Shown: positions 1-52,784 of the stretch, piece after piece | Layout of the letters: the number at the start of each line of letters is the position of its first letter | Numbering within the stretch: position 1 is the first letter of the stretch | From: Escherichia coli | GTDB taxonomy: Bacteria; Pseudomonadota; Gammaproteobacteria; Enterobacterales; Enterobacteriaceae | Reading direction: 5' to 3' (one strand) | DNA: 64,000 bases | NCBI RefSeq assembly: GCF_002854065.1 | Contig: NZ_CP024147.1 | Notes under the pieces: model-generated | The model's input: only the letters and a program-made list of their open reading frames with translations | What the model was told of the DNA's origin: nothing | Databases searched by the model: none | Translations under genes and position numbers: made by a program

Positions 1-640
1 GAGCGATGCTGCCTCACTGAATTCGGTGACGGAAGCGAATCAGCAAAAACCCCTGCTTGGCCTGTTTGCTGACGGCAATATGCCAGTGCGCTGGCTAGGA
101 CCGAAAGCAACGTACCATGGCAATATCGATAAGCCCGCAGTCACCTGTACGCCTAATCCGCAACGTAATGACAGTGTACCAACCCTGGCGCAGATGACCG
201 ACAAAGCCATTGAATTGTTGAGTAAAAATGAGAAAGGCTTTTTCCTGCAAGTTGAAGGTGCGTCAATCGATAAACAGGATCATGCTGCGAATCCTTGTGG
301 GCAAATTGGCGAGACGGTCGATCTCGATGAAGCCGTACAACGGGCGCTGGAATTCGCTAAAAAGGAGGGTAACACGCTGGTCATAGTCACCGCTGATCAC
401 GCCCACGCCAGCCAGATTGTTGCGCCGGATACCAAAGCTCCGGGCCTCACCCAGGCGCTAAATACCAAAGATGGCGCAGTGATGGTGATGAGTTACGGGA
501 ACTCCGAAGAGGATTCACAAGAACATACAGGCAGTCAGTTGCGTATTGCGGCGTATGGCCCGCATGCCGCCAATGTCGTTGGACTGACCGACCAGACCGA
601 TCTCTTCTACACCATGAAAGCCGCTCTGGGGCTGAAATAA
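1..640 (+). CDS. phoA: alkaline phosphatase, 3' partial (reading frame enters from upstream of window; codons begin at position 2)
   Basis: Translation ...[31 protein letters not shown]...[11 protein letters not shown]...[10 protein letters not shown] matches PhoA C-terminus; stop TAA at 638-640. Confidence 0.95.
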
Positions 641-757: not shown

Positions 758-1078
758 ATGAAAATTACATTACTGGTTACCTTGCTTTTCGGTCTGGTTT
801 TTTTAACCACCGTCGGCGCTGCCGAGAGAACCTTAACCCCACAACAACAGCGTATGACCTCCTGTAATCAGCAGGCGACGGCACAGGCGTTGAAAGGGGA
901 TGCTCGTAAGAACTACATGAGTGATTGCCTGAAGAACAGCAAGTCTGCGCCTGGTGAAAAAAGTTTGACGCCACAGCAGCAAAAGATGCGCGAATGTAAT
1001 AATCAAGCAACGCAACAATCACTGAAAGGTGATGATCGTAATAAGTTTATGAGTGCCTGCCTCAAGAAAGCCGCCTGA
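758..1078 (+). CDS. psiF: phosphate-starvation inducible protein PsiF (signal peptide, two TPQQQ repeats)
   Basis: ORF 704-1078; start set at internal MKITLLVTLLFGLVFLTTVGA signal peptide with GAGGG RBS upstream; duplicated LTPQQQ(R/K)M..CN.QAT motif. Confidence 0.88.
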   Translation: MKITLLVTLLFGLVFLTTVGAAERTLTPQQQRMTSCNQQATAQALKGDARKNYMSDCLKNSKSAPGEKSLTPQQQKMRECNNQATQQSLKGDDRNKFMSACLKKAA

Positions 1079-5938: not shown

Positions 5939-6292
5939 TTCCTCGCCTTCCCCTTGAACGGGAGGGCATTTTTCTGAAATATCCTCTCTTTAACCCATAA
6001 TAATATTTCCTTTGCTGCGATTTTTTCAATTTCCGATATATTCATAATTCATCAAGGTTGATATAAATATCATTGAAGATTATGAATAGAATTAATATAT
6101 TGGTCATCTGTATGGTCGTATTTTTTATGACTGGCAATGCATGCGCCACAGAGTGGATCAGTAGCGAGGAGCTTATCACCTCTGACTTTCATCTTATGAC
6201 GGCAGATGAGCGCAACGTGGTTAAAGCGGCAACCGACGATAGTATGGAAGCTGCTTATATGCTAAAAGATAATATCCGCTGGTATTATCATA

Positions 6293-6301
6293 ATGGTGAC
6301 C
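6293..6301. repeat. 9-bp target site duplication (ATGGTGACC), left copy
   Basis: Identical 9-mer immediately flanks both IS1 ends. Confidence 0.85.
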
Positions 6302-6356
6302 GGTGATGCTGCCAACTTACTGATTTAGTGTATGATGGTGTTTTTGAGGTGCTCCA

Positions 6357-6632
6357 GTGGCTTCTGTTTCTATCAGCTGTCCCTCCTGTTCAGCTACTGA
6401 CGGGGTGGTGCGTAACGGCAAAAGCACTGCCGGACATCAGCGCTATCTCTGCTCTCACTGCCGTAAAACATGGCAACTGCAGTTCACTTACACCGCTTCT
6501 CAACCCGGTACGCACCAGAAAATCATTGATATGGCCATGAATGGCGTTGGATGCCGGGCAACCGCCCGCATTATGGGCGTTGGCCTCAACACGATTTTCC
6601 GCCATTTAAAAAACTCAGGCCGCAGTCGGTAA
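6357..6632 (+). CDS. insA: IS1 InsA (transposition inhibitor / N-terminal part of transposase)
   Basis: [46 protein letters not shown]... ; GTG start. Confidence 0.95.
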
Positions 6633-7054
6633 CCTCGCGCATACAGCCGGGCAGTGACGTCATCGTCTGCGCGGAAATGGACGAACAGTGGGGATACGTC
6701 GGGGCTAAATCGCGCCAGCGCTGGCTGTTTTACGCGTATGACAGGCTCCGGAAGACGGTTGTTGCGCACGTATTCGGTGAACGCACTATGGCGACGCTGG
6801 GGCGTCTTATGAGCCTGCTGTCACCCTTTGACGTGGTGATATGGATGACGGATGGCTGGCCGCTGTATGAATCCCGCCTGAAGGGAAAGCTGCACGTAAT
6901 CAGCAAGCGATATACGCAGCGAATTGAGCGGCATAACCTGAATCTGAGGCAGCACCTGGCACGGCTGGGACGGAAGTCGCTGTCGTTCTCAAAATCGGTG
7001 GAGCTGCATGACAAAGTCATCGGGCATTATCTGAACATAAAACACTATCAATAA
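6551..7054 (+). CDS. insB: IS1 InsB' frame (expressed as InsAB' fusion by programmed -1 frameshift at the A6C motif near 6606-6615)
   Basis: ...[26 protein letters not shown]...HYLNIKHYQ* ; TTTAAAAAAC slippery run in insA/insB overlap. Confidence 0.9.
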
Positions 7055-7069
7055 GTTGGAGTCATTACC

Positions 7070-7078
7070 ATGGTGACC
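7070..7078. repeat. 9-bp target site duplication (ATGGTGACC), right copy
   Basis: Identical to 6293-6301. Confidence 0.85.
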
Positions 7079-9134
7079 TATCATTACCCGCTAACTTCAG
7101 CAATCAAAATAAACTGGTGGTGAACGGTAATTTAACGATTTCCGGCGATTATGATGATTATCTGTCAGGTAATGGTCATCTGATTGTATTAGGTAATGTT
7201 ATTGTCGATAACTTTATTAATCATGATTTCGCGTATGTCAAAGGACAGATGACCGCGAAAGGTTTAGTTTATGCTGATTACAATGATCATAACTTTGAAG
7301 TGATGAAGGGAATTAGTGCGCGAGGCATTATTGTTTCCGATAAAGCAACGCAATTTGAAGTCATTAAAGCTGAATTTTATATCAATGAAGATGGAAGTGG
7401 TGAAGGATATAACTGGGATGAGAATATTCAAAAAGCCTATTCACTGGTGACTGCCGATCTTTATGATCACACTGAAATCGAAACCGATAACATTTCCAAT
7501 GCGTATCCTGACTATGATAGCGTCGCAGACAACATCGTTCAGGGTTTACCGCTTTTTCGAGATAAAGCCGCTCCTGAAATTAATGAGAAATTAAAATGGA
7601 TTGAAACGGGGAAACTCGATAATTTCCCAGCGAATAAAATAAAGCATCAAGATCCACTGGTGGCACGTTTGCTGACTCATACAGAGAGTTTATCACCCGC
7701 CGTTATGCTGCAACTGTTACAGCACCCCGATGACCAGACGCGTGAATCGATGGCGCAGTCCTGGCCCGCTCAACAGATGCATTTGCTTACCGATGAATTA
7801 ATTAAAGATGAGGCTGTTGCCAGAGGGCTGGTTAAAAACAGTAATATTTCCGCCGATGTGAATAAAAAATTAATGTCTGTACCCGTCGAGAGCGTACAGC
7901 TGGAGCAGGCCAGACAGGATAATCTTTCTCCAGATATTGTTGCGTCGTTAAGTCATAGCCCCTTTCTCAGTGTACGCAAGACATTACTCAGCCATTACGA
8001 TTACGCCTGGCTGGTTCCGACTGCAGTGGCCGATGAGTTGATAAATAACGAAGACCCGGAGTTACGTGAAAGAATTACCGGAGCAGATTTAACCGCACAA
8101 CAAGCAGTGATGTTGAGTAAAGATAAATCACTGAAAGTTCGTGAAGCATTAGCCCGGACGCTTACTGAATTAAAAATTACCCAACTGTCAGCAACCCTGC
8201 GTACAGAGGATATTGAACGTATCGCAGAACAAATGTATCTGGATAATAAAGAAAATAAAAATATCGTAAAGGCGTTATTGATAGCGTTGCCGGAGATGCG
8301 TCAACTGTCTCTGGCAAAAGAAGATGTGCACAATTTGCGCGAAGGTGCGCGTTATCTGACATCGAAGGACGTGATTAGTTATCTATTGACTCAGCATGAT
8401 GTTCCCACCGTCTGGGATGAGCTGGCACGCGATAAATTATTGCCGCTGGAATATAAGAAACAGTTATGGCAACGCACATTAAATTTAATGATGAGCAAAC
8501 GGCAAGAAGATCAAGAGCAAGCCTACGAAGTACAGCTGGCGCTGATTGATAATGGTGTTGTTGACGAAGAGATGTTAAATAATGCCATTGATTTACTGGT
8601 TGATTTACCCGCTGAATACCGCTATCGAATGCGTAACCAATTATTTGATAATAAAGATTTATCTTCCGGAATTATCAACAAACTCGATCAACAGTATCGC
8701 TTCAACTCTGACTGGGCGCTGTCTGTTGTCAGTATGAAAAATAGCACCCGTAGGCAAAGTGAAAGAGGATTACACCGCTGGAACCGTGAGGATAGCGATA
8801 TTTTTGCAGAACTGGCGACGATAAAAGATAAATCAGATGATGAATGGTGGCGTGCATTGCTGCAAAGTCGCAATGATCATTTGCGCCAAACGGCATTACG
8901 CAACGCACATACCCCGGCGTCGTTGTTAACGACATTGACTGAGCCTCAGGATCGGTCGCTGGCTATTAATAATCCACAGCTGGCTGCCGATGTGAAAACG
9001 GCGTGGTTAAAAGAGGATCCATCATTACTCTTATTTGTCGAACAACCCGATCTTTCGCTGTTACGTGATTTAGTGAAAACCGGGGCAACGCGGAAAATTT
9101 GCAGTGAAGCGCGTCACCGGCTTGAGGAAAAACA

Positions 9135-9590
9135 ATGACACAACGTCCATGGAGCAAGTTACAGCGGGAGATCTATGACTTACTGACGCCAACGATCAAC
9201 CTGCAAATTCACTGTACCCGTTATCCCATGCGCAGCCAAAATGGTGGAAGCACCGATTTACCGCGTTATTGGATCACGTTGGATAAAAACGTGATCTGGG
9301 ATTACCCGAAAGACTTTATTGCAGGTAACGGTGGAGTGCGTAATTTTCACGGTGAAACTTGCTGGTATCCTTACCTGACGGATATTTGTTCAATTTCTGA
9401 TTTATTGCGTGAATATATTGACACCCCAAAAGCGGAGTTGTTAACAAAACAATTTACCAGCGATAAATGGGGGTTAGTGAATATTCTGCGTGCTGCTGAC
9501 AGGCGAATAGGGATGAGGCGATTAGATCAGTTACGGCGTAAAACGCATAATATTGCTGCGCTAAAAATTATTGCCCGCCGTAGCGAATAA
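9135..9590 (+). CDS. hypothetical protein, 151 aa, translationally coupled to upstream repeat-protein gene
   Basis: ATG overlaps upstream stop (ATGA at 9135-9138); no motif recognised; [17 protein letters not shown]... Confidence 0.6.
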
Positions 9591-16000: not shown

Positions 16001-16208
16001 CATTTTGCGATTGTGAAACGTTAGAGAGACGCGGAGTTTCGTGATACAGCGCCAAACAAATGGCGTCCAGCAGGGTGGTTTTCCCCGCACCGGTTGGGCC
16101 GGTAATGGCAAACAGCCCGTTGCTGGCGAACGGCTCGCGGGTGAAATCAATCTTCCATTCGCCTTTTAATGAGTTCAGGTTTTTCAGGCGCAGGCTGAGA
16201 ATTTTCAT
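13065..16208 (-). CDS. sbcC: ATP-dependent dsDNA exonuclease SbcC (SMC-like ATPase)
   Basis: [22 protein letters not shown]...[14 protein letters not shown]... long Q/E-rich coiled coil with CPLCGS zinc hook, C-terminal signature LSGGESFL...[11 protein letters not shown]. Confidence 0.95.
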
Positions 16209-17407
16209 GCTTCGTGTTCTCCGGCGAGGGTATGCAACGTCGTGGTGAAAAGATGCTGCAGACGTTGCTGCTGCGATTCATCCAGTTCTTCCAGTGCCAG
16301 ACGGCGATTGAACACCTCTTCGACGCTGAGTTCGCTGAGGGTTTCACGCTGTTGGCTGGCTAACACACGCTCGCGCTGTTCACGACTCCGGCGTACCAGT
16401 AATACTTCAACAGGCAATGATTCGGTTAATGTCTGGATTTTGCGCTGAATATCATGCAGATACTCATCAGTAGTGATTTCGATATCCAGCCAGACAGGTG
16501 GCTCCTGTGATACATCGCGCCACTGTTCCAGCTGTTCGGTAATCGACGCCAGATCGCCTTTCAGCACCGCCATAGGTTGCGTTACCGGTACGTTCAGGTT
16601 TTCCACGCTCTCTAATTTGCCGTTTGAAAATGTCACCAGATGGACATATTTACTCTTACCGCATTCATCAAAACTCAGTGGAATGGGGGAACCGCAATAG
16701 CGAACATGTTCCATGCCGCCAATAATCTGTGCGCGGTGAATATGCCCGAGCGCGATGTAGTCGGCTGGTGGAAAGTTTTGTGCCGGAAACGCGTCCAGCG
16801 TGCCAATATAAATGTCACGCACGGCGTCACTTTTACTGGCCCCCACGGTCGTTAAATGTCCCGTGGCGATGATGGGCAGAGGCTGATCGCCGCGCAGTTT
16901 GCAGGCATCGGCATAGTGTTGTTGGTAATAATCGGTAATCGCTGCCAGTAAATGCTGCTGTTTTTCAATACCATTAAGCCCCGCCTGGCTGGTAATAATG
17001 TCACGCGGACGTAAAAACGGAATGGGGCACAGCACTGCGCCTGGCGTCCCGTCGCGACGAGGCAAGATTTGCGGCGCATGTCCGGCGCTGGCGACCACGG
17101 TAGTATTGAGGAACGCCATGATATCGCGCGATTCATTCAGCGTGGCGACCGAGTCATGGTTTCCTGCCAGTACCACCAGATGACAGCCAGTTTGCTGTAA
17201 ATTGACAACAAAACGGTTGTATAACGTGCGGGCGTAACTGGGCGGCGAGCCGGTATCGAAAACATCACCAGCAACAATAATCGCATCCACCTGATGGGTT
17301 TGTGCTGTTTCCAGCAGCCAGTCAAGAAAAGCCTGATGTTCAGCTTCGCGGCTTTTACTGTAGAAGTTCTGGCCGAGATGCCAGTCTGAGGTGTGAAGGA
17401 TGCGCAT
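16205..17407 (-). CDS. sbcD: dsDNA exonuclease SbcD (Mre11-like phosphoesterase)
   Basis: [31 protein letters not shown]...; 4-nt overlap with sbcC start. Confidence 0.95.
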
Positions 17408-17515
17408 AACGGTTCCCTGGCGAAAAAGCATGGGCGCGATTATACCCAAACAGATGTGCCATTTGCTTTTTTCTGCGCCACGGAAATCAATAACCTGAAG
17501 ATATGTGCGACGAGC

Positions 17516-17546
17516 TTTTCATAAATCTGTCATAAATCTGACGCAT
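17516..17546 (+). promoter_or_regulatory. Pho box (PhoB binding sites) in phoB promoter
   Basis: ttttcataaatctgtcataaatctgacgcat: tandem CTGTCAT-like 7-mers spaced 11 bp apart, the canonical Pho box architecture. Confidence 0.7.
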
Positions 17547-17596
17547 AATGACGTCGCATTAATGATCGCAACCTATTTATTACAACAGGGCAAATC

Positions 17597-18286
17597 ATGG
17601 CGAGACGTATTCTGGTCGTAGAAGATGAAGCTCCAATTCGCGAAATGGTCTGCTTCGTGCTCGAACAAAATGGCTTTCAGCCGGTCGAAGCGGAAGATTA
17701 TGACAGTGCTGTGAATCAACTGAATGAACCCTGGCCGGATTTAATTCTTCTTGACTGGATGTTACCTGGCGGCTCCGGTATCCAGTTCATCAAACACCTC
17801 AAGCGCGAGTCGATGACCCGGGATATTCCAGTGGTGATGTTGACCGCCAGAGGGGAAGAAGAAGATCGCGTGCGCGGCCTTGAAACCGGCGCGGATGACT
17901 ATATCACCAAGCCGTTTTCGCCGAAGGAGCTGGTGGCGCGAATCAAAGCGGTAATGCGCCGTATTTCGCCAATGGCGGTGGAAGAGGTGATTGAGATGCA
18001 GGGATTAAGTCTCGACCCGACATCTCACCGGGTGATGGCGGGCGAAGAGCCGCTGGAGATGGGGCCGACAGAATTTAAACTGCTGCACTTTTTTATGACG
18101 CATCCTGAACGCGTGTACAGCCGCGAGCAGCTGTTAAACCACGTCTGGGGAACTAACGTGTATGTGGAAGACCGCACGGTCGATGTCCACATTCGTCGCC
18201 TGCGTAAAGCACTGGAGCCCGGCGGGCATGACCGCATGGTGCAGACCGTGCGTGGTACAGGATATCGTTTTTCAACCCGCTTTTAA
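17597..18286 (+). CDS. phoB: phosphate regulon response regulator PhoB
   Basis: [27 protein letters not shown]...; 229 aa. Confidence 0.97.
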
Positions 18287-18343: not shown

Positions 18344-19639
18344 GTGCTGGAACGGCTGTCGTGGAAAAGGCTGGTGCTGGAGCTGCTACTTTGCTGCCTC
18401 CCGGCTTTCATCCTGGGTGCATTTTTTGGTTACCTGCCCTGGTTTTTGCTGGCATCGGTAACGGGACTGCTTATCTGGCATTTCTGGAATTTATTGCGCC
18501 TTTCATGGTGGCTGTGGGTTGATCGTAGTATGACCCCGCCACCGGGGCGTGGTAGCTGGGAACCGCTACTATACGGCTTACACCAGATGCAGCTGCGAAA
18601 TAAAAAACGCCGCCGTGAACTGGGCAATCTGATTAAACGCTTTCGTAGCGGCGCGGAGTCGCTGCCCGACGCAGTGGTGCTGACCACGGAAGAGGGCGGT
18701 ATTTTCTGGTGTAACGGTCTGGCGCAACAGATTCTTGGTTTGCGCTGGCCGGAAGATAACGGGCAGAACATCCTTAACCTGCTGCGTTACCCGGAGTTTA
18801 CGCAATATCTGAAAACGCGTGATTTTTCTCGCCCGCTCAATCTGGTGCTCAACACCGGGCGGCATCTGGAAATTCGCGTCATGCCTTATACCCACAAACA
18901 GTTGCTGATGGTGGCGCGTGATGTCACGCAAATGCATCAACTGGAAGGGGCGCGGCGTAACTTTTTTGCCAACGTGAGCCATGAGTTACGTACGCCATTG
19001 ACCGTGTTACAGGGTTACCTGGAGATGATGGATGAGCAACCGCTGGAAGGCGCGGTACGTGAAAAAGCGTTGCACACCATGCGCGAGCAGACCCAGCGGA
19101 TGGAAGGGCTGGTGAAGCAGTTGCTGACGCTGTCGAAAATTGAAGCCGCGCCGACGCAATTGCTCAATGAAAAGGTTGATGTGCCGATGATGCTGCGCGT
19201 TGTTGAGCGCGAGGCTCAGACTCTGAGTCAGAAAAAACAGACATTTACCTTTGAGATAGACAACGGCCTCAAGGTGTCTGGCAACGAAGATCAGCTACGC
19301 AGTGCGATTTCGAACCTGGTCTATAACGCCGTGAATCATACTCCAGAAGGCACGCATATCACCGTACGCTGGCAGCGAGTGCCGCACGGTGCCGAATTTA
19401 GCGTTGAAGATAACGGACCGGGCATTGCACCGGAGCATATTCCGCGCCTGACCGAGCGTTTTTATCGCGTTGATAAAGCGCGTTCCCGGCAAACCGGCGG
19501 TAGCGGATTAGGGTTAGCGATCGTGAAACATGCGGTGAATCATCACGAAAGTCGCCTGAATATTGAGAGTACAGTAGGAAAAGGAACACGTTTCAGTTTT
19601 GTTATCCCGGAACGTTTAATTGCCAAAAACAGCGATTAA
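18344..19639 (+). CDS. phoR: phosphate regulon sensor histidine kinase PhoR
   Basis: 431 aa; H-box [13 protein letters not shown] and ATPase motifs. Confidence 0.97.
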
Positions 19640-50483: not shown

Positions 50484-50883
50484 CTCTTAAAAAAATGCCC
50501 ACATAGTGTAGTGCGGAGCGCATGTTGGGTAAACAGAGTGTTAATGAGAAAATATTACAGAGGAGAATAATTTGTGTGTCAGGTATGTTTTTTGCATTCA
50601 TAAAATGAATGCTCTATATGTTGAAAAAATGAATTTTAAAGCTAAATAGTTTTACATCAAAAAAATAATAATATCATTTCTTGATTACCATGTGCATTTT
50701 TTATCTTACGAATATGCTAGTTTTATCTTACTAAATAAACGATTTGGTGACATGGATGATAATGTTTCAGGCTAAATGTGTGCTTATTACTTGGGCCTTT
50801 ATGGCACTGTATTTATTCATTAAATGGATGTTTGGTGGTTAATTATTATGGAAGTATATGACAGTGAGGACATAAAGGTATAC

Positions 50884-51819
50884 ATGTTAACTAAAAGAAT
50901 ATTATTTTCTTTAATGCTAATAGTTTCACCAGGCGTGGTGGCAAGCGAGAAAGCGCATGAATTGTATGACAGCATATACGGTGGTCAACCTGCGCCCGAT
51001 GTTATAAATACACTGCATAAAATGGCTGAATTGGGAGATGTCGACGCGCAGAGCCTGTTAGGCTGGGAATATTATCAGCCTCGCTATGATACCAAACCTG
51101 ATGTTCAGGAAGCGATTAAATGGTTCGAGTTAGCCGCTAAACAAGGTGACAGAGAAGCTCCGTTAGCGCTGGGGAGTATCTACTACATCGGTGAGCTGGT
51201 GCGGGTGGATTATGCCAAAGCGTATGCACTATTTAATCAGGCCGCGCAATACGGTGTGAATTTAGCATGGTCCAGGTTGGGCATGATGTACGCCAATGGT
51301 CAGTATGTTGAGGTAGATTGTAAGAAAGCGAAGGAATATCTTGATAAAGGTGTCCACATTTATGGTGGTCCGGAAGACTTTCTGGCTACATGTCGAAAAG
51401 ACATGATTGACAGAAAAACGGTTGACGATACGTTACCCGTGATCACGGTTACCCGTTCTGGGATGCGGGATAATTTTTTAGATAAAGATTTTTCCTGCAT
51501 GGATAGCCTCTTCGCCACCACCAATAAATTAGGCGAAGTGGCCAATCTTCGCGTGACATTCAGCATTCGTAGCCCATCCGGTAAGGAGATTAACCAAACG
51601 GTTGGCTTCGCGCCTTTCGGTTTAAACCGGCTGAATATTAGCTTTACTGATTACATATTTGATTCATTTACCAGTAATTCGTCTCTAATTCTTTATAAAC
51701 CGGAATTTGAGCGAAAATCTTGTGCAACTGTAAGGACCACAATCGTTGCCGCAACGGCAACCATTAACGGCAAGGATGTGGAGTTGCTGAAAGCGGGGGC
51801 AATTGAACAAAAGTGGTAA
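50884..51819 (+). CDS. Sel1-repeat (TPR-like) secreted protein with uncharacterised C-terminal domain; accessory
   Basis: ATG at 50884 after AAAGG RBS; signal peptide MLTKRILFSLMLIVSPGVVASE; Sel1 repeats (DAQSLLGWEYY, AIKWFELAAKQGDREAPLALGSIYYIGELVRVDYAKAYALFNQAAQYG, LAWSRLGMMYANGQYVEVDCKKAKEYLDKG). Confidence 0.75.
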   Translation: MLTKRILFSLMLIVSPGVVASEKAHELYDSIYGGQPAPDVINTLHKMAELGDVDAQSLLGWEYYQPRYDTKPDVQEAIKWFELAAKQGDREAPLALGSIYYIGELVRVDYAKAYALFNQAAQYGVNLAWSRLGMMYANGQYVEVDCKKAKEYLDKGVHIYGGPEDFLATCRKDMIDRKTVDDTLPVITVTRSGMRDNFLDKDFSCMDSLFATTNKLGEVANLRVTFSIRSPSGKEINQTVGFAPFGLNRLNISFTDYIFDSFTSNSSLILYKPEFERKSCATVRTTIVAATATINGKDVELLKAGAIEQKW

Positions 51820-51874: not shown

Positions 51875-52417
51875 CTAAGCCGCGAGAATATGCTGAATCG
51901 CCAAAAACATAGGTACAGCACCAAAAGCATTTGGTGTCGCTGAAAGCTGAACAAAGCCGAGACGAGCATAAAAGTTAATGGCGGCAGGGTCAGCATCAAG
52001 ATAAACCCCTTTAATTGGTAATGCCTGGTGAATTATTTTTACATGTTCAAAAAAATCACATAGTAGGTCCTGACCAAAGCCCCGCTTTTGATACTTCCGC
52101 GCCACCCCCAACATGACTAATCTGACAACACCAATCTCTGAAGGCTGTGAACCCTGAAGGACGCCAGAAACGCGTTGTTTTTCCAGCGAATATGCCGTAA
52201 AAGTACAGATGCCAATCAGTTCACCACTTTGTCTGTCAATAAGTGCTTTAGCCGCACAGTCGCTATTACGCACACTTTTCTTTAGCGATGTGCGTACAAA
52301 TTTATCGATAACAGGGTTACCGCAATCAAACTGTTTTTGCCCAGGATAAGTAATATCAGACTGATAATTACAGGAGAGGACTATGGGCAGAGTAATCTCT
52401 TCATGCTTGTCGACCAT
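51875..52417 (-). CDS. GNAT-family acetyltransferase, predicted type II toxin (TacT/AtaT/ItaT-like)
   Basis: 180 aa; FDCG motif near N-terminus, acetyl-CoA motif QKRGFGQDLL; overlaps upstream RHH/DUF1778-like ORF by 17 nt. Confidence 0.8.
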   Translation of the reverse strand: MVDKHEEITLPIVLSCNYQSDITYPGQKQFDCGNPVIDKFVRTSLKKSVRNSDCAAKALIDRQSGELIGICTFTAYSLEKQRVSGVLQGSQPSEIGVVRLVMLGVARKYQKRGFGQDLLCDFFEHVKIIHQALPIKGVYLDADPAAINFYARLGFVQLSATPNAFGAVPMFLAIQHILAA

Positions 52418-52712
52418 CGCTGTTTTTCCTTTTCATTAACGCCTTGAGTGCGAGCGTCGGTTGAGCAGGTTCGGCGATGAGTTGGTTCATCAGTTCCCAG
52501 CTTTGATTCGAAAGCTCACGGCGACGTTGGTTATCAAGCACGCTTTCGGCGCGTTCCATAGCAGCGCTCAAAATAAAGGCGCTTAAATCTAACCCAACGG
52601 CTTGCGCAGCTTCACGAAGTCTGTTTTTGGCGTCGGGACTGGTTTTGAGTTCAACCCGCGCATTTTTCAGCGTTTTATCGACATCGGGTAGAGTGGCTGT
52701 TTTTCCAGGCAT
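52401..52712 (-). CDS. predicted antitoxin (DUF1778 / ribbon-helix-helix-like) of the GNAT toxin
   Basis: 103 aa from ATG at 52710-52712 with AAGAGG RBS; MPGKTATLPDVDKTLKNARVELKTSPDAKNRLREAAQAVGLDLSAFILSAAMERAESVL; track ORF extends further upstream (52778) but lacks RBS. Confidence 0.7.
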   Translation of the reverse strand: MPGKTATLPDVDKTLKNARVELKTSPDAKNRLREAAQAVGLDLSAFILSAAMERAESVLDNQRRRELSNQSWELMNQLIAEPAQPTLALKALMKRKNSDGRQA

Positions 52713-52765
52713 TGTGACCTCTTTGATTAACTGAATGAAATCGTAGGGAGTCGATCTCATACATA

Positions 52766-52784
52766 ATACGGCTATCAACCGTAT
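52766..52784. promoter_or_regulatory. operator-like palindrome 1 upstream of the toxin-antitoxin operon
   Basis: atacgg ctatcaa ccgtat (ATACGG-N7-CCGTAT). Confidence 0.4.

Follow-up and report, generated by a model that had tools for sequence, protein, structure and literature searches.

What does the short intergenic region upstream of phoB contain in this E. coli strain, a Pho box alone or a larger regulatory element of which the Pho box is one part? The window, that is, the whole 64-kb stretch of E. coli DNA (64,000 nucleotides) analysed here, had previously been read from its letters alone, and this sequence-only reading reported an intact canonical Pho box at 17516-17546, upstream of phoB, with tandem CTGTCAT-type repeats as expected for an autoregulated phoBR operon. 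The observation is confirmed and its interpretation is supported with refinements. It is almost certain that a Pho box at 17516-17537 activates phoBR and that an overlapping, weak antisense site at 17539-17553 represses it. The feature is already known, and is letter for letter that of K-12. The sequence, position, statistics, identity to K-12 and conservation described below are from this analysis, while binding, activation and repression are drawn from published work on K-12.

The interval lies 81 bp 5' of the phoB ATG (17597), in the 189-bp intergenic region between sbcD and phoB (Table 1). The sensor kinase gene phoR follows phoB in the same operon after a gap of 57 bp, and both genes exceed the cut-offs of their equivalog models, as is expected of a cognate PhoB/PhoR system. 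The gene order after phoB is phoR, brnQ, proY, and all five genes, sbcD included, reach NCBIfam equivalog cut-offs and are annotated alike in RefSeq genomes. The phoA 3' end and psiF, which had also been recognized from sequence at the window start, are indeed there. The phoA promoter and its Pho box fall outside the window, and neither a consensus search nor a position weight matrix (PWM) scan of the 64 kb found a phoA-type box. No Rfam RNA family reached its gathering threshold anywhere in the window.

Table 1. Features at and around the phoB promoter, with window coordinates; the last column gives identity to the window among 105 distinct sequences from other genomes that span the full comparison region.
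Feature	Coordinates	Strand	Sequence or basis	Identity to window
phoA 3' end	1-640	+	Annotation of near-identical genome	
psiF	758-1078	+	Annotation of near-identical genome	
sbcD, divergent neighbour	16205-17407	-	NCBIfam equivalog and RefSeq annotation	
Upstream flank				0.29
Pho box upstream half-site (half-site 1)	17516-17526	+	TTTTCATAAAT; part of top PWM match and of ChIP-seq motif TTTCATAAATCTGTCATA	0.92
Pho box downstream half-site (half-site 2)	17527-17537	+	CTGTCATAAAT; perfect CTGTCAT core, then A/T-rich minor-groove segment	0.88
Third, degenerate 11-bp repeat	17538-17548	+	CTGACGCATAA; adjoins Pho box, fills 10-bp gap, overlaps -10 hexamer	0.96
Low-affinity PhoB auto-repression site	17539-17553	-	Mapped here from mutagenic primers in PMC6194859	
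phoB -10 hexamer, PhoB-dependent sigma-70 promoter	17544-17549	+	CATAAT; sequence, and primers in PMC6194859	0.98
Region 3' of -10 hexamer	17550-17560			0.57
Downstream flank	17561-17577			0.32
phoB, response regulator; target of the box, to which its product binds	17597-18286	+	NCBIfam equivalog NF007546, 540 bits (cut-off 471)	
Second PhoB site, within phoB coding sequence	17699-17716	-	ATTCACAGCACTGTCATA; second-best PWM match in window, 16.0 bits	
phoR, sensor kinase	18344-19639	+	NCBIfam equivalog NF008235, 889 bits (cut-off 390); RefSeq agrees	

The exact sequence of window positions 17516-17546 is TTTTCATAAATCTGTCATAAATCTGACGCAT, and it includes, without change, the tandem-repeat string quoted in the sequence-only reading. 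Tandem Repeats Finder identified an exact 11-bp unit, TCATAAATCTG, present in 2.0 copies with a 100% match at 17519-17540; the chance expectation of an exact 11-bp tandem duplication is about 0.015 per 64 kb (64000 x 4^-11). The locus thus has the two direct repeats with an 11-bp period that define a Pho box, each consisting of a CTGTCAT-like core and an A/T-rich 4-bp segment (AAAT in both cases), and each half-site carries a TGTCA-type tract, exact in the downstream half and with one mismatch in the upstream half, where the major-groove tract is TTTCA (7-bp core, TTTTCAT). The same upstream tract is found in K-12 phoB and in several ChIP-seq sites, for example those of amn, rpoH and yhjB. The label 'canonical' therefore suits the CTGTCAT of the downstream half but not the TTTTCAT of the upstream half. 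The extent of the box also has to be revised, since the 22-bp PhoB site occupies only 17516-17537 and is shorter than the interval reported; bases 17538-17546 comprise a third degenerate repeat, one auto-repression tract and the 5' half (three bases) of the -10 hexamer.

How well does this sequence score as a PhoB site when set beside sites that are bound experimentally? The PWM was trained on 57 PhoB ChIP-seq sites from Table 1 of Fitzgerald et al. (2023; PMC10294691), with both phoB-locus sites left out against circularity, and the training sites themselves score from 6.9 to 23.2 bits (median 14.8). Positions 17517-17534 score 20.98 bits, the best score on either strand of the 64-kb window; when the window was shuffled 300 times with its dinucleotides preserved, this value was never reached (mean of the shuffle maxima 14.7, largest 20.05). 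The classical consensus CTGTCATAWAWCTGTCAY, with up to three mismatches allowed, matches at a single place in the window, in two overlapping registers (17516-17533 and 17527-17544) with two mismatches each. By chance, 0.29 matches are expected, and at least two were seen in 6 of 100 shuffles; taken alone, the consensus test is only moderately strong. The second-best PWM match, inside the phoB coding sequence, coincides with an intragenic '(phoB)' ChIP-seq peak at K-12 417245 (score 5, motif ATTCACAGCACTGTCATA; PMC10294691, Table 1), and most intragenic PhoB sites were deemed inert by the same authors. Lower-scoring matches elsewhere in the window, among them the third-best at 34122-34139 (+) in the tsx-yajI intergenic region upstream of tsx (TTTCACAGTTCTATCATT, 13.9 bits) and another at 28847-28864 (12.8 bits), are not taken as PhoB sites, because they lie within the chance range (a shuffle is expected to contain about 2.1 sites scoring 13.1 bits or more) and the published list has no ChIP-seq peak between K-12 417245 and 569907 (PMC10294691).

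The check proposed with the sequence-only reading was alignment to the K-12 phoB promoter, and over 17400-17620 all 221 of 221 bases are identical to those of E. coli K-12 MG1655 (K-12 coordinate = window coordinate + 399545). PhoB is likewise identical to its K-12 counterpart at 229 of 229 positions, and the flanking genes are the same, with sbcD on one side and phoB-phoR-brnQ-proY on the other. The Pho box of the K-12 phoB promoter (Makino et al., 1986; 1988, cited in PMC6194859) is therefore the same locus without any difference. On this identical sequence, PhoB~P binding and induction by starvation have been documented by ChIP-seq, EMSA and reporter assays (PMC10294691; PMC6194859; PMC4447250). 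The ChIP-seq peak labelled 'sbcD/phoB' is centred at K-12 417093, which is window position 17548, with a score of 11 and the motif TTTCATAAATCTGTCATA, and phoBR was found to be positively regulated by PhoB (Fitzgerald et al., 2023; PMC10294691). High-affinity PhoB binding and positive autoregulation have been described for the K-12 phoB promoter (PMC6194859; PMC4447250); PhoB covers 22 bp, corresponding to two 11-bp repeats, and the phoB box is bound more tightly than the phoA box because its minor-groove segments consist of A/T only (Gao and Stock, 2015; PMC4447250). Because both the promoter and PhoB are identical, these experimental results can be transferred, and we infer that PhoB binding, activation and repression should hold in this strain as they do in K-12. 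The PDB holds entries 1GXP and 3T72 for the PhoB DNA-binding domain, which we take to be a PhoB-DNA complex and a sigma-4 complex, respectively.

The arrangement of the promoter is that of a PhoB-dependent promoter. The 18-bp box ends at 17533, leaving a gap of 10 bp before the -10 hexamer at 17544, and the positions at which a -35 hexamer would lie match TTGACA at only two of six bases. The -35 hexamer is absent and the Pho box stands in its place, about 10 bp 5' of the -10 hexamer and upstream of a Pho-regulon gene. A sigma-70 promoter scan of 17350-17650 found no -35/-10 pair, a result that fits an activator-dependent promoter and that we do not count against there being a promoter, because the -35 hexamer is absent, as expected. 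Transcription would start about 6-8 nt after 17549. The phrase 'CATGAT at the -10 region' in Gao and Stock (2018; PMC6194859) refers to a mutant of the phoB hexamer; their primers leave CATAAT intact.

The third repeat is where the promoter departs from a simple activator site. In the sense direction it gives a PhoB match of 13.2 bits at 17528-17545 and forms the second register of the consensus search, and an extra half-site adjoining the downstream half of the Pho box was described by Gao and Stock (2018; PMC6194859). The same study also placed a low-affinity PhoB site on the opposite strand, surrounding the -10 hexamer (KD 4.9 µM, against a dissociation constant of about 0.25 µM for the activation site). 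In the window, antisense CGTCA tracts at 17543-17539 and 17553-17549 (TGACG on the sense strand) bracket the -10 hexamer, forming two antisense half-sites with a 1-bp overlap and tracts 5 bp apart; the tracts are spaced by 10 bp, not 11. The bases of this site are identical to those of K-12 and correspond to the positions altered in the published mutagenic primers. In window coordinates, the rp2 mutant carries ACG to TTC at 17541-17543 and ACG to TGC at 17551-17553, and primer RG278-f carries G to A at 17543, which makes an antisense CGTCA into TGTCA (PMC6194859). We take RG278-f to be the rp-hi mutant, because rp-hi is said in the paper to turn one half-site to consensus (PMC6194859). Repression was lost in rp2 mutants, in which CATAAT is intact, and was stronger in rp-hi, and among phoB, phoA and phnC marked PhoB-dependent auto-repression was found for phoB only (Gao and Stock, 2018; PMC6194859). 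Because its 3' part overlaps the -10 hexamer and half of the antisense site, the interval 17516-17546 is a combined activation and repression element; even the closing 'ctgac' of the string quoted in the sequence-only reading belongs to the repression site. The expectation of an autoregulated phoBR therefore stands as far as the positive loop is concerned, which is published for the identical K-12 sequence, but the regulation is not purely positive, since a coupled negative feedback through the antisense site has also been published.

The element is close to invariant within the species. Of 5423 complete E. coli genomes, 5390 match the window at every one of the 60 bases from 17505 to 17564. 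The sequence-only reading had considered refutation not applicable, but the intactness of the box is a testable property: in E. coli N4220121 (NZ_CP114227.1, 2462-2571) exactly one 11-bp unit is deleted, equivalent to window 17519-17529, leaving GCTTTTCATAAATCTGACGCATAAT. This was the lowest-ranked match of the 5423-genome search and the only genome seen there with a broken Pho box. The loss has the look of replication slippage from one perfect copy to the other, but the repeat may instead have collapsed in the assembly.

To what extent does the element persist beyond E. coli? One genome per species was scanned with a degenerate pattern that represents the start of the phoB coding sequence (its first 35 bases). 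This gave 120 loci, nearly all from Enterobacterales (Escherichia, Salmonella, Citrobacter, Enterobacter, Serratia, Yersinia, Dickeya, Photorhabdus, Providencia, Morganella and others), together with Photobacterium and one unrelated match in Acidimicrobiales. The same element was present in 114 of the 117 loci that had enough upstream sequence. The loci were anchored with a regular expression in which some positions from 17528 to 17547 are fixed, and the bias this introduces is small because so many of these loci matched. Identity to the window is 88-98% across a 35-bp block, 17516-17550, and drops to 29-32%, the level of chance, in the flanks (Table 1); broad conservation of the phoB site among 29 gammaproteobacteria was also reported by Fitzgerald et al. 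(PMC10294691). Within the 114 loci, half-site 1 reads TTTCA in 78 and xxTCA in nearly all, half-site 2 keeps TGTCA in 113, and the -10 hexamer is CATAAT in 101 and CATACT in the other 13. The two auto-repression tracts differ in their conservation: TGACG is kept at 17539-17543 in 110 loci but at 17549-17553 in only 30, with TGGCG there in 44, including E. albertii and one E. coli genome (E69). Because the 17549-17553 tract is poorly conserved outside Escherichia, the negative-feedback arm may be lineage-specific, and the strength of negative autoregulation may differ between lineages.

These comparisons bear on an alternative that was implicit in the sequence-only reading, namely that the Pho box is a purely positive autoregulatory site and that the bases after 17537 are mere spacer plus the -10 hexamer. 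Such a reading could draw on the third repeat being a weak sense match at a score level where chance alone supplies about two sites per 64 kb, on the variation of the downstream repression tract among species, and on the fact that the -10 hexamer by itself accounts for the conservation of 17544-17549. However, the TGACG at 17539-17543 lies outside the hexamer and is nonetheless kept in almost every locus, the repression site is bound in EMSA, and the loss of repression in rp2 with an unaltered CATAAT, together with the gain in rp-hi, has already refuted a purely positive box for K-12 (Gao and Stock, 2018; PMC6194859). We consider it improbable for this strain.

A second alternative, in which phoBR is not the sole target and the box regulates the divergent sbcDC operon or transcription in both directions, is very improbable. 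The two operons share the intergenic region, the box lies about 110 bp from the start of sbcD, and the ChIP-seq peak bears the names of both genes (PMC10294691). Against this, the orientation of the box and its 10-bp spacing fit the plus-strand CATAAT, the sbcD strand has its best -10-like hexamer (TATAAT, approximately 17440-17445) about 70 bp from the box, and sbcD RNA was unchanged by deletion of phoB (274 in the wild type and 271 in the deletion; PMC10294691, Table 1); control of sbcDC by the box is rejected on these published RNA-seq data. The perfect TATAAT on the sbcD strand sits within a short G+C-rich inverted repeat followed by a T-run, at 17431-17448 (-), which a terminator scan flagged; instead of a terminator, it may represent the -10 region of sbcDC. 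Finally, a chance A/T-rich tandem repeat without function can be practically dismissed, for the loose consensus search does find two or more matches in some shuffles, but no shuffle exceeds the PWM score, the position relative to the -10 hexamer and phoB is as expected, the block is conserved across 114 genomes and its flanks are not, and ChIP-seq and EMSA data for the identical sequence (PMC10294691; PMC6194859) had, with that conservation, already refuted it.

With the combined activation and repression element as the preferred reading, the circuit would operate as follows. When phosphate is scarce, PhoR would phosphorylate PhoB, and a PhoB~P dimer would bind head-to-tail on the two 11-bp direct repeats at 17516-17537, with a recognition helix in each (T/G)TCA major-groove tract and a wing on each A/T-rich minor groove. 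From the -35 position, 10 bp 5' of CATAAT, bound PhoB would recruit RNA polymerase through sigma-70 region 4 and so raise phoBR transcription, giving positive autoregulation. At high PhoB~P, the antisense site at 17539-17553 would be filled as well, occluding the -10 hexamer and blocking RNA polymerase, and this repression would cap PhoB at an optimal level, as a coupled negative feedback.

The architecture of the phoB box is shared with the Pho boxes of pstS (TGTCATAAAACTGTCATA) and phoA (TGTCATAAAGTTGTCACG), in which two 11-bp direct repeats with TGTCA tracts likewise take the place of the -35 hexamer, but the phoB box differs in its upstream tract, TTTCA, and in minor-groove segments that are entirely A/T. 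In other two-component systems of the OmpR/PhoB family, autoregulated promoters have a tandem direct-repeat site 5' of the regulator's own operon, which provides positive feedback. In contrast to these, phoB adds a weaker site on the opposite strand, over the -10 hexamer, which provides negative feedback (PMC6194859).

Elsewhere the window departs from K-12. The host strain is not K-12, and its closest genome is that of strain 100416 (Gambia). The distance from phoA to phoB is about 3 kb shorter in K-12; the extra DNA of the window, which includes an IS1, lies between ppnP and rdgC. There, in the region 6082-9138, the IS1 (6302-7069; insA 6357-6632, insB 6551-7054) interrupts a DUF2773-family gene. 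The same gene carries an IS1 in strain 100416, 137 bp further along, which indicates two insertions at different sites. A second IS1 in strain 100416, absent from the window, splits a gene for a SEL1/tetratricopeptide-repeat protein that is intact here as a 331-aa ORF (50824-51819). Adjoining this ORF is a pair consisting of a TacA-like antitoxin and a GNAT acetyltransferase toxin (51875-52417 and 52401-52778, minus strand). Between yajO and pgpA, 39271-40854 is annotated in a near-identical genome as the type III secretion effector EspY3, a pentapeptide-repeat protein.

What, then, does this locus add? The only mildly new point concerns the size of the conserved unit, which is 35 bp (17516-17550) instead of the 18-22 bp usually quoted, and which includes CTGACG (17538-17543), between the Pho box and the -10 hexamer, a segment at least as conserved as the Pho box itself among the 114 genomes. 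It is conceivable, but in our view rather unlikely, that the single A/G position 17551 tunes the coupled negative feedback between lineages, in which case the invariant upstream tract would serve another, undescribed role, such as contact with a third PhoB protomer or with RNA polymerase. That suggestion concerns the promoter family; the window itself holds nothing new and serves as a positive control, in that a known regulatory site was correctly recognized from raw sequence. For the organism, the strain keeps the textbook phosphate-starvation circuit, in which phoA-psiF and phoBR are present and both the Pho box and the auto-repression site are intact, so that its Pho-regulon behaviour can be assumed to follow that of K-12.
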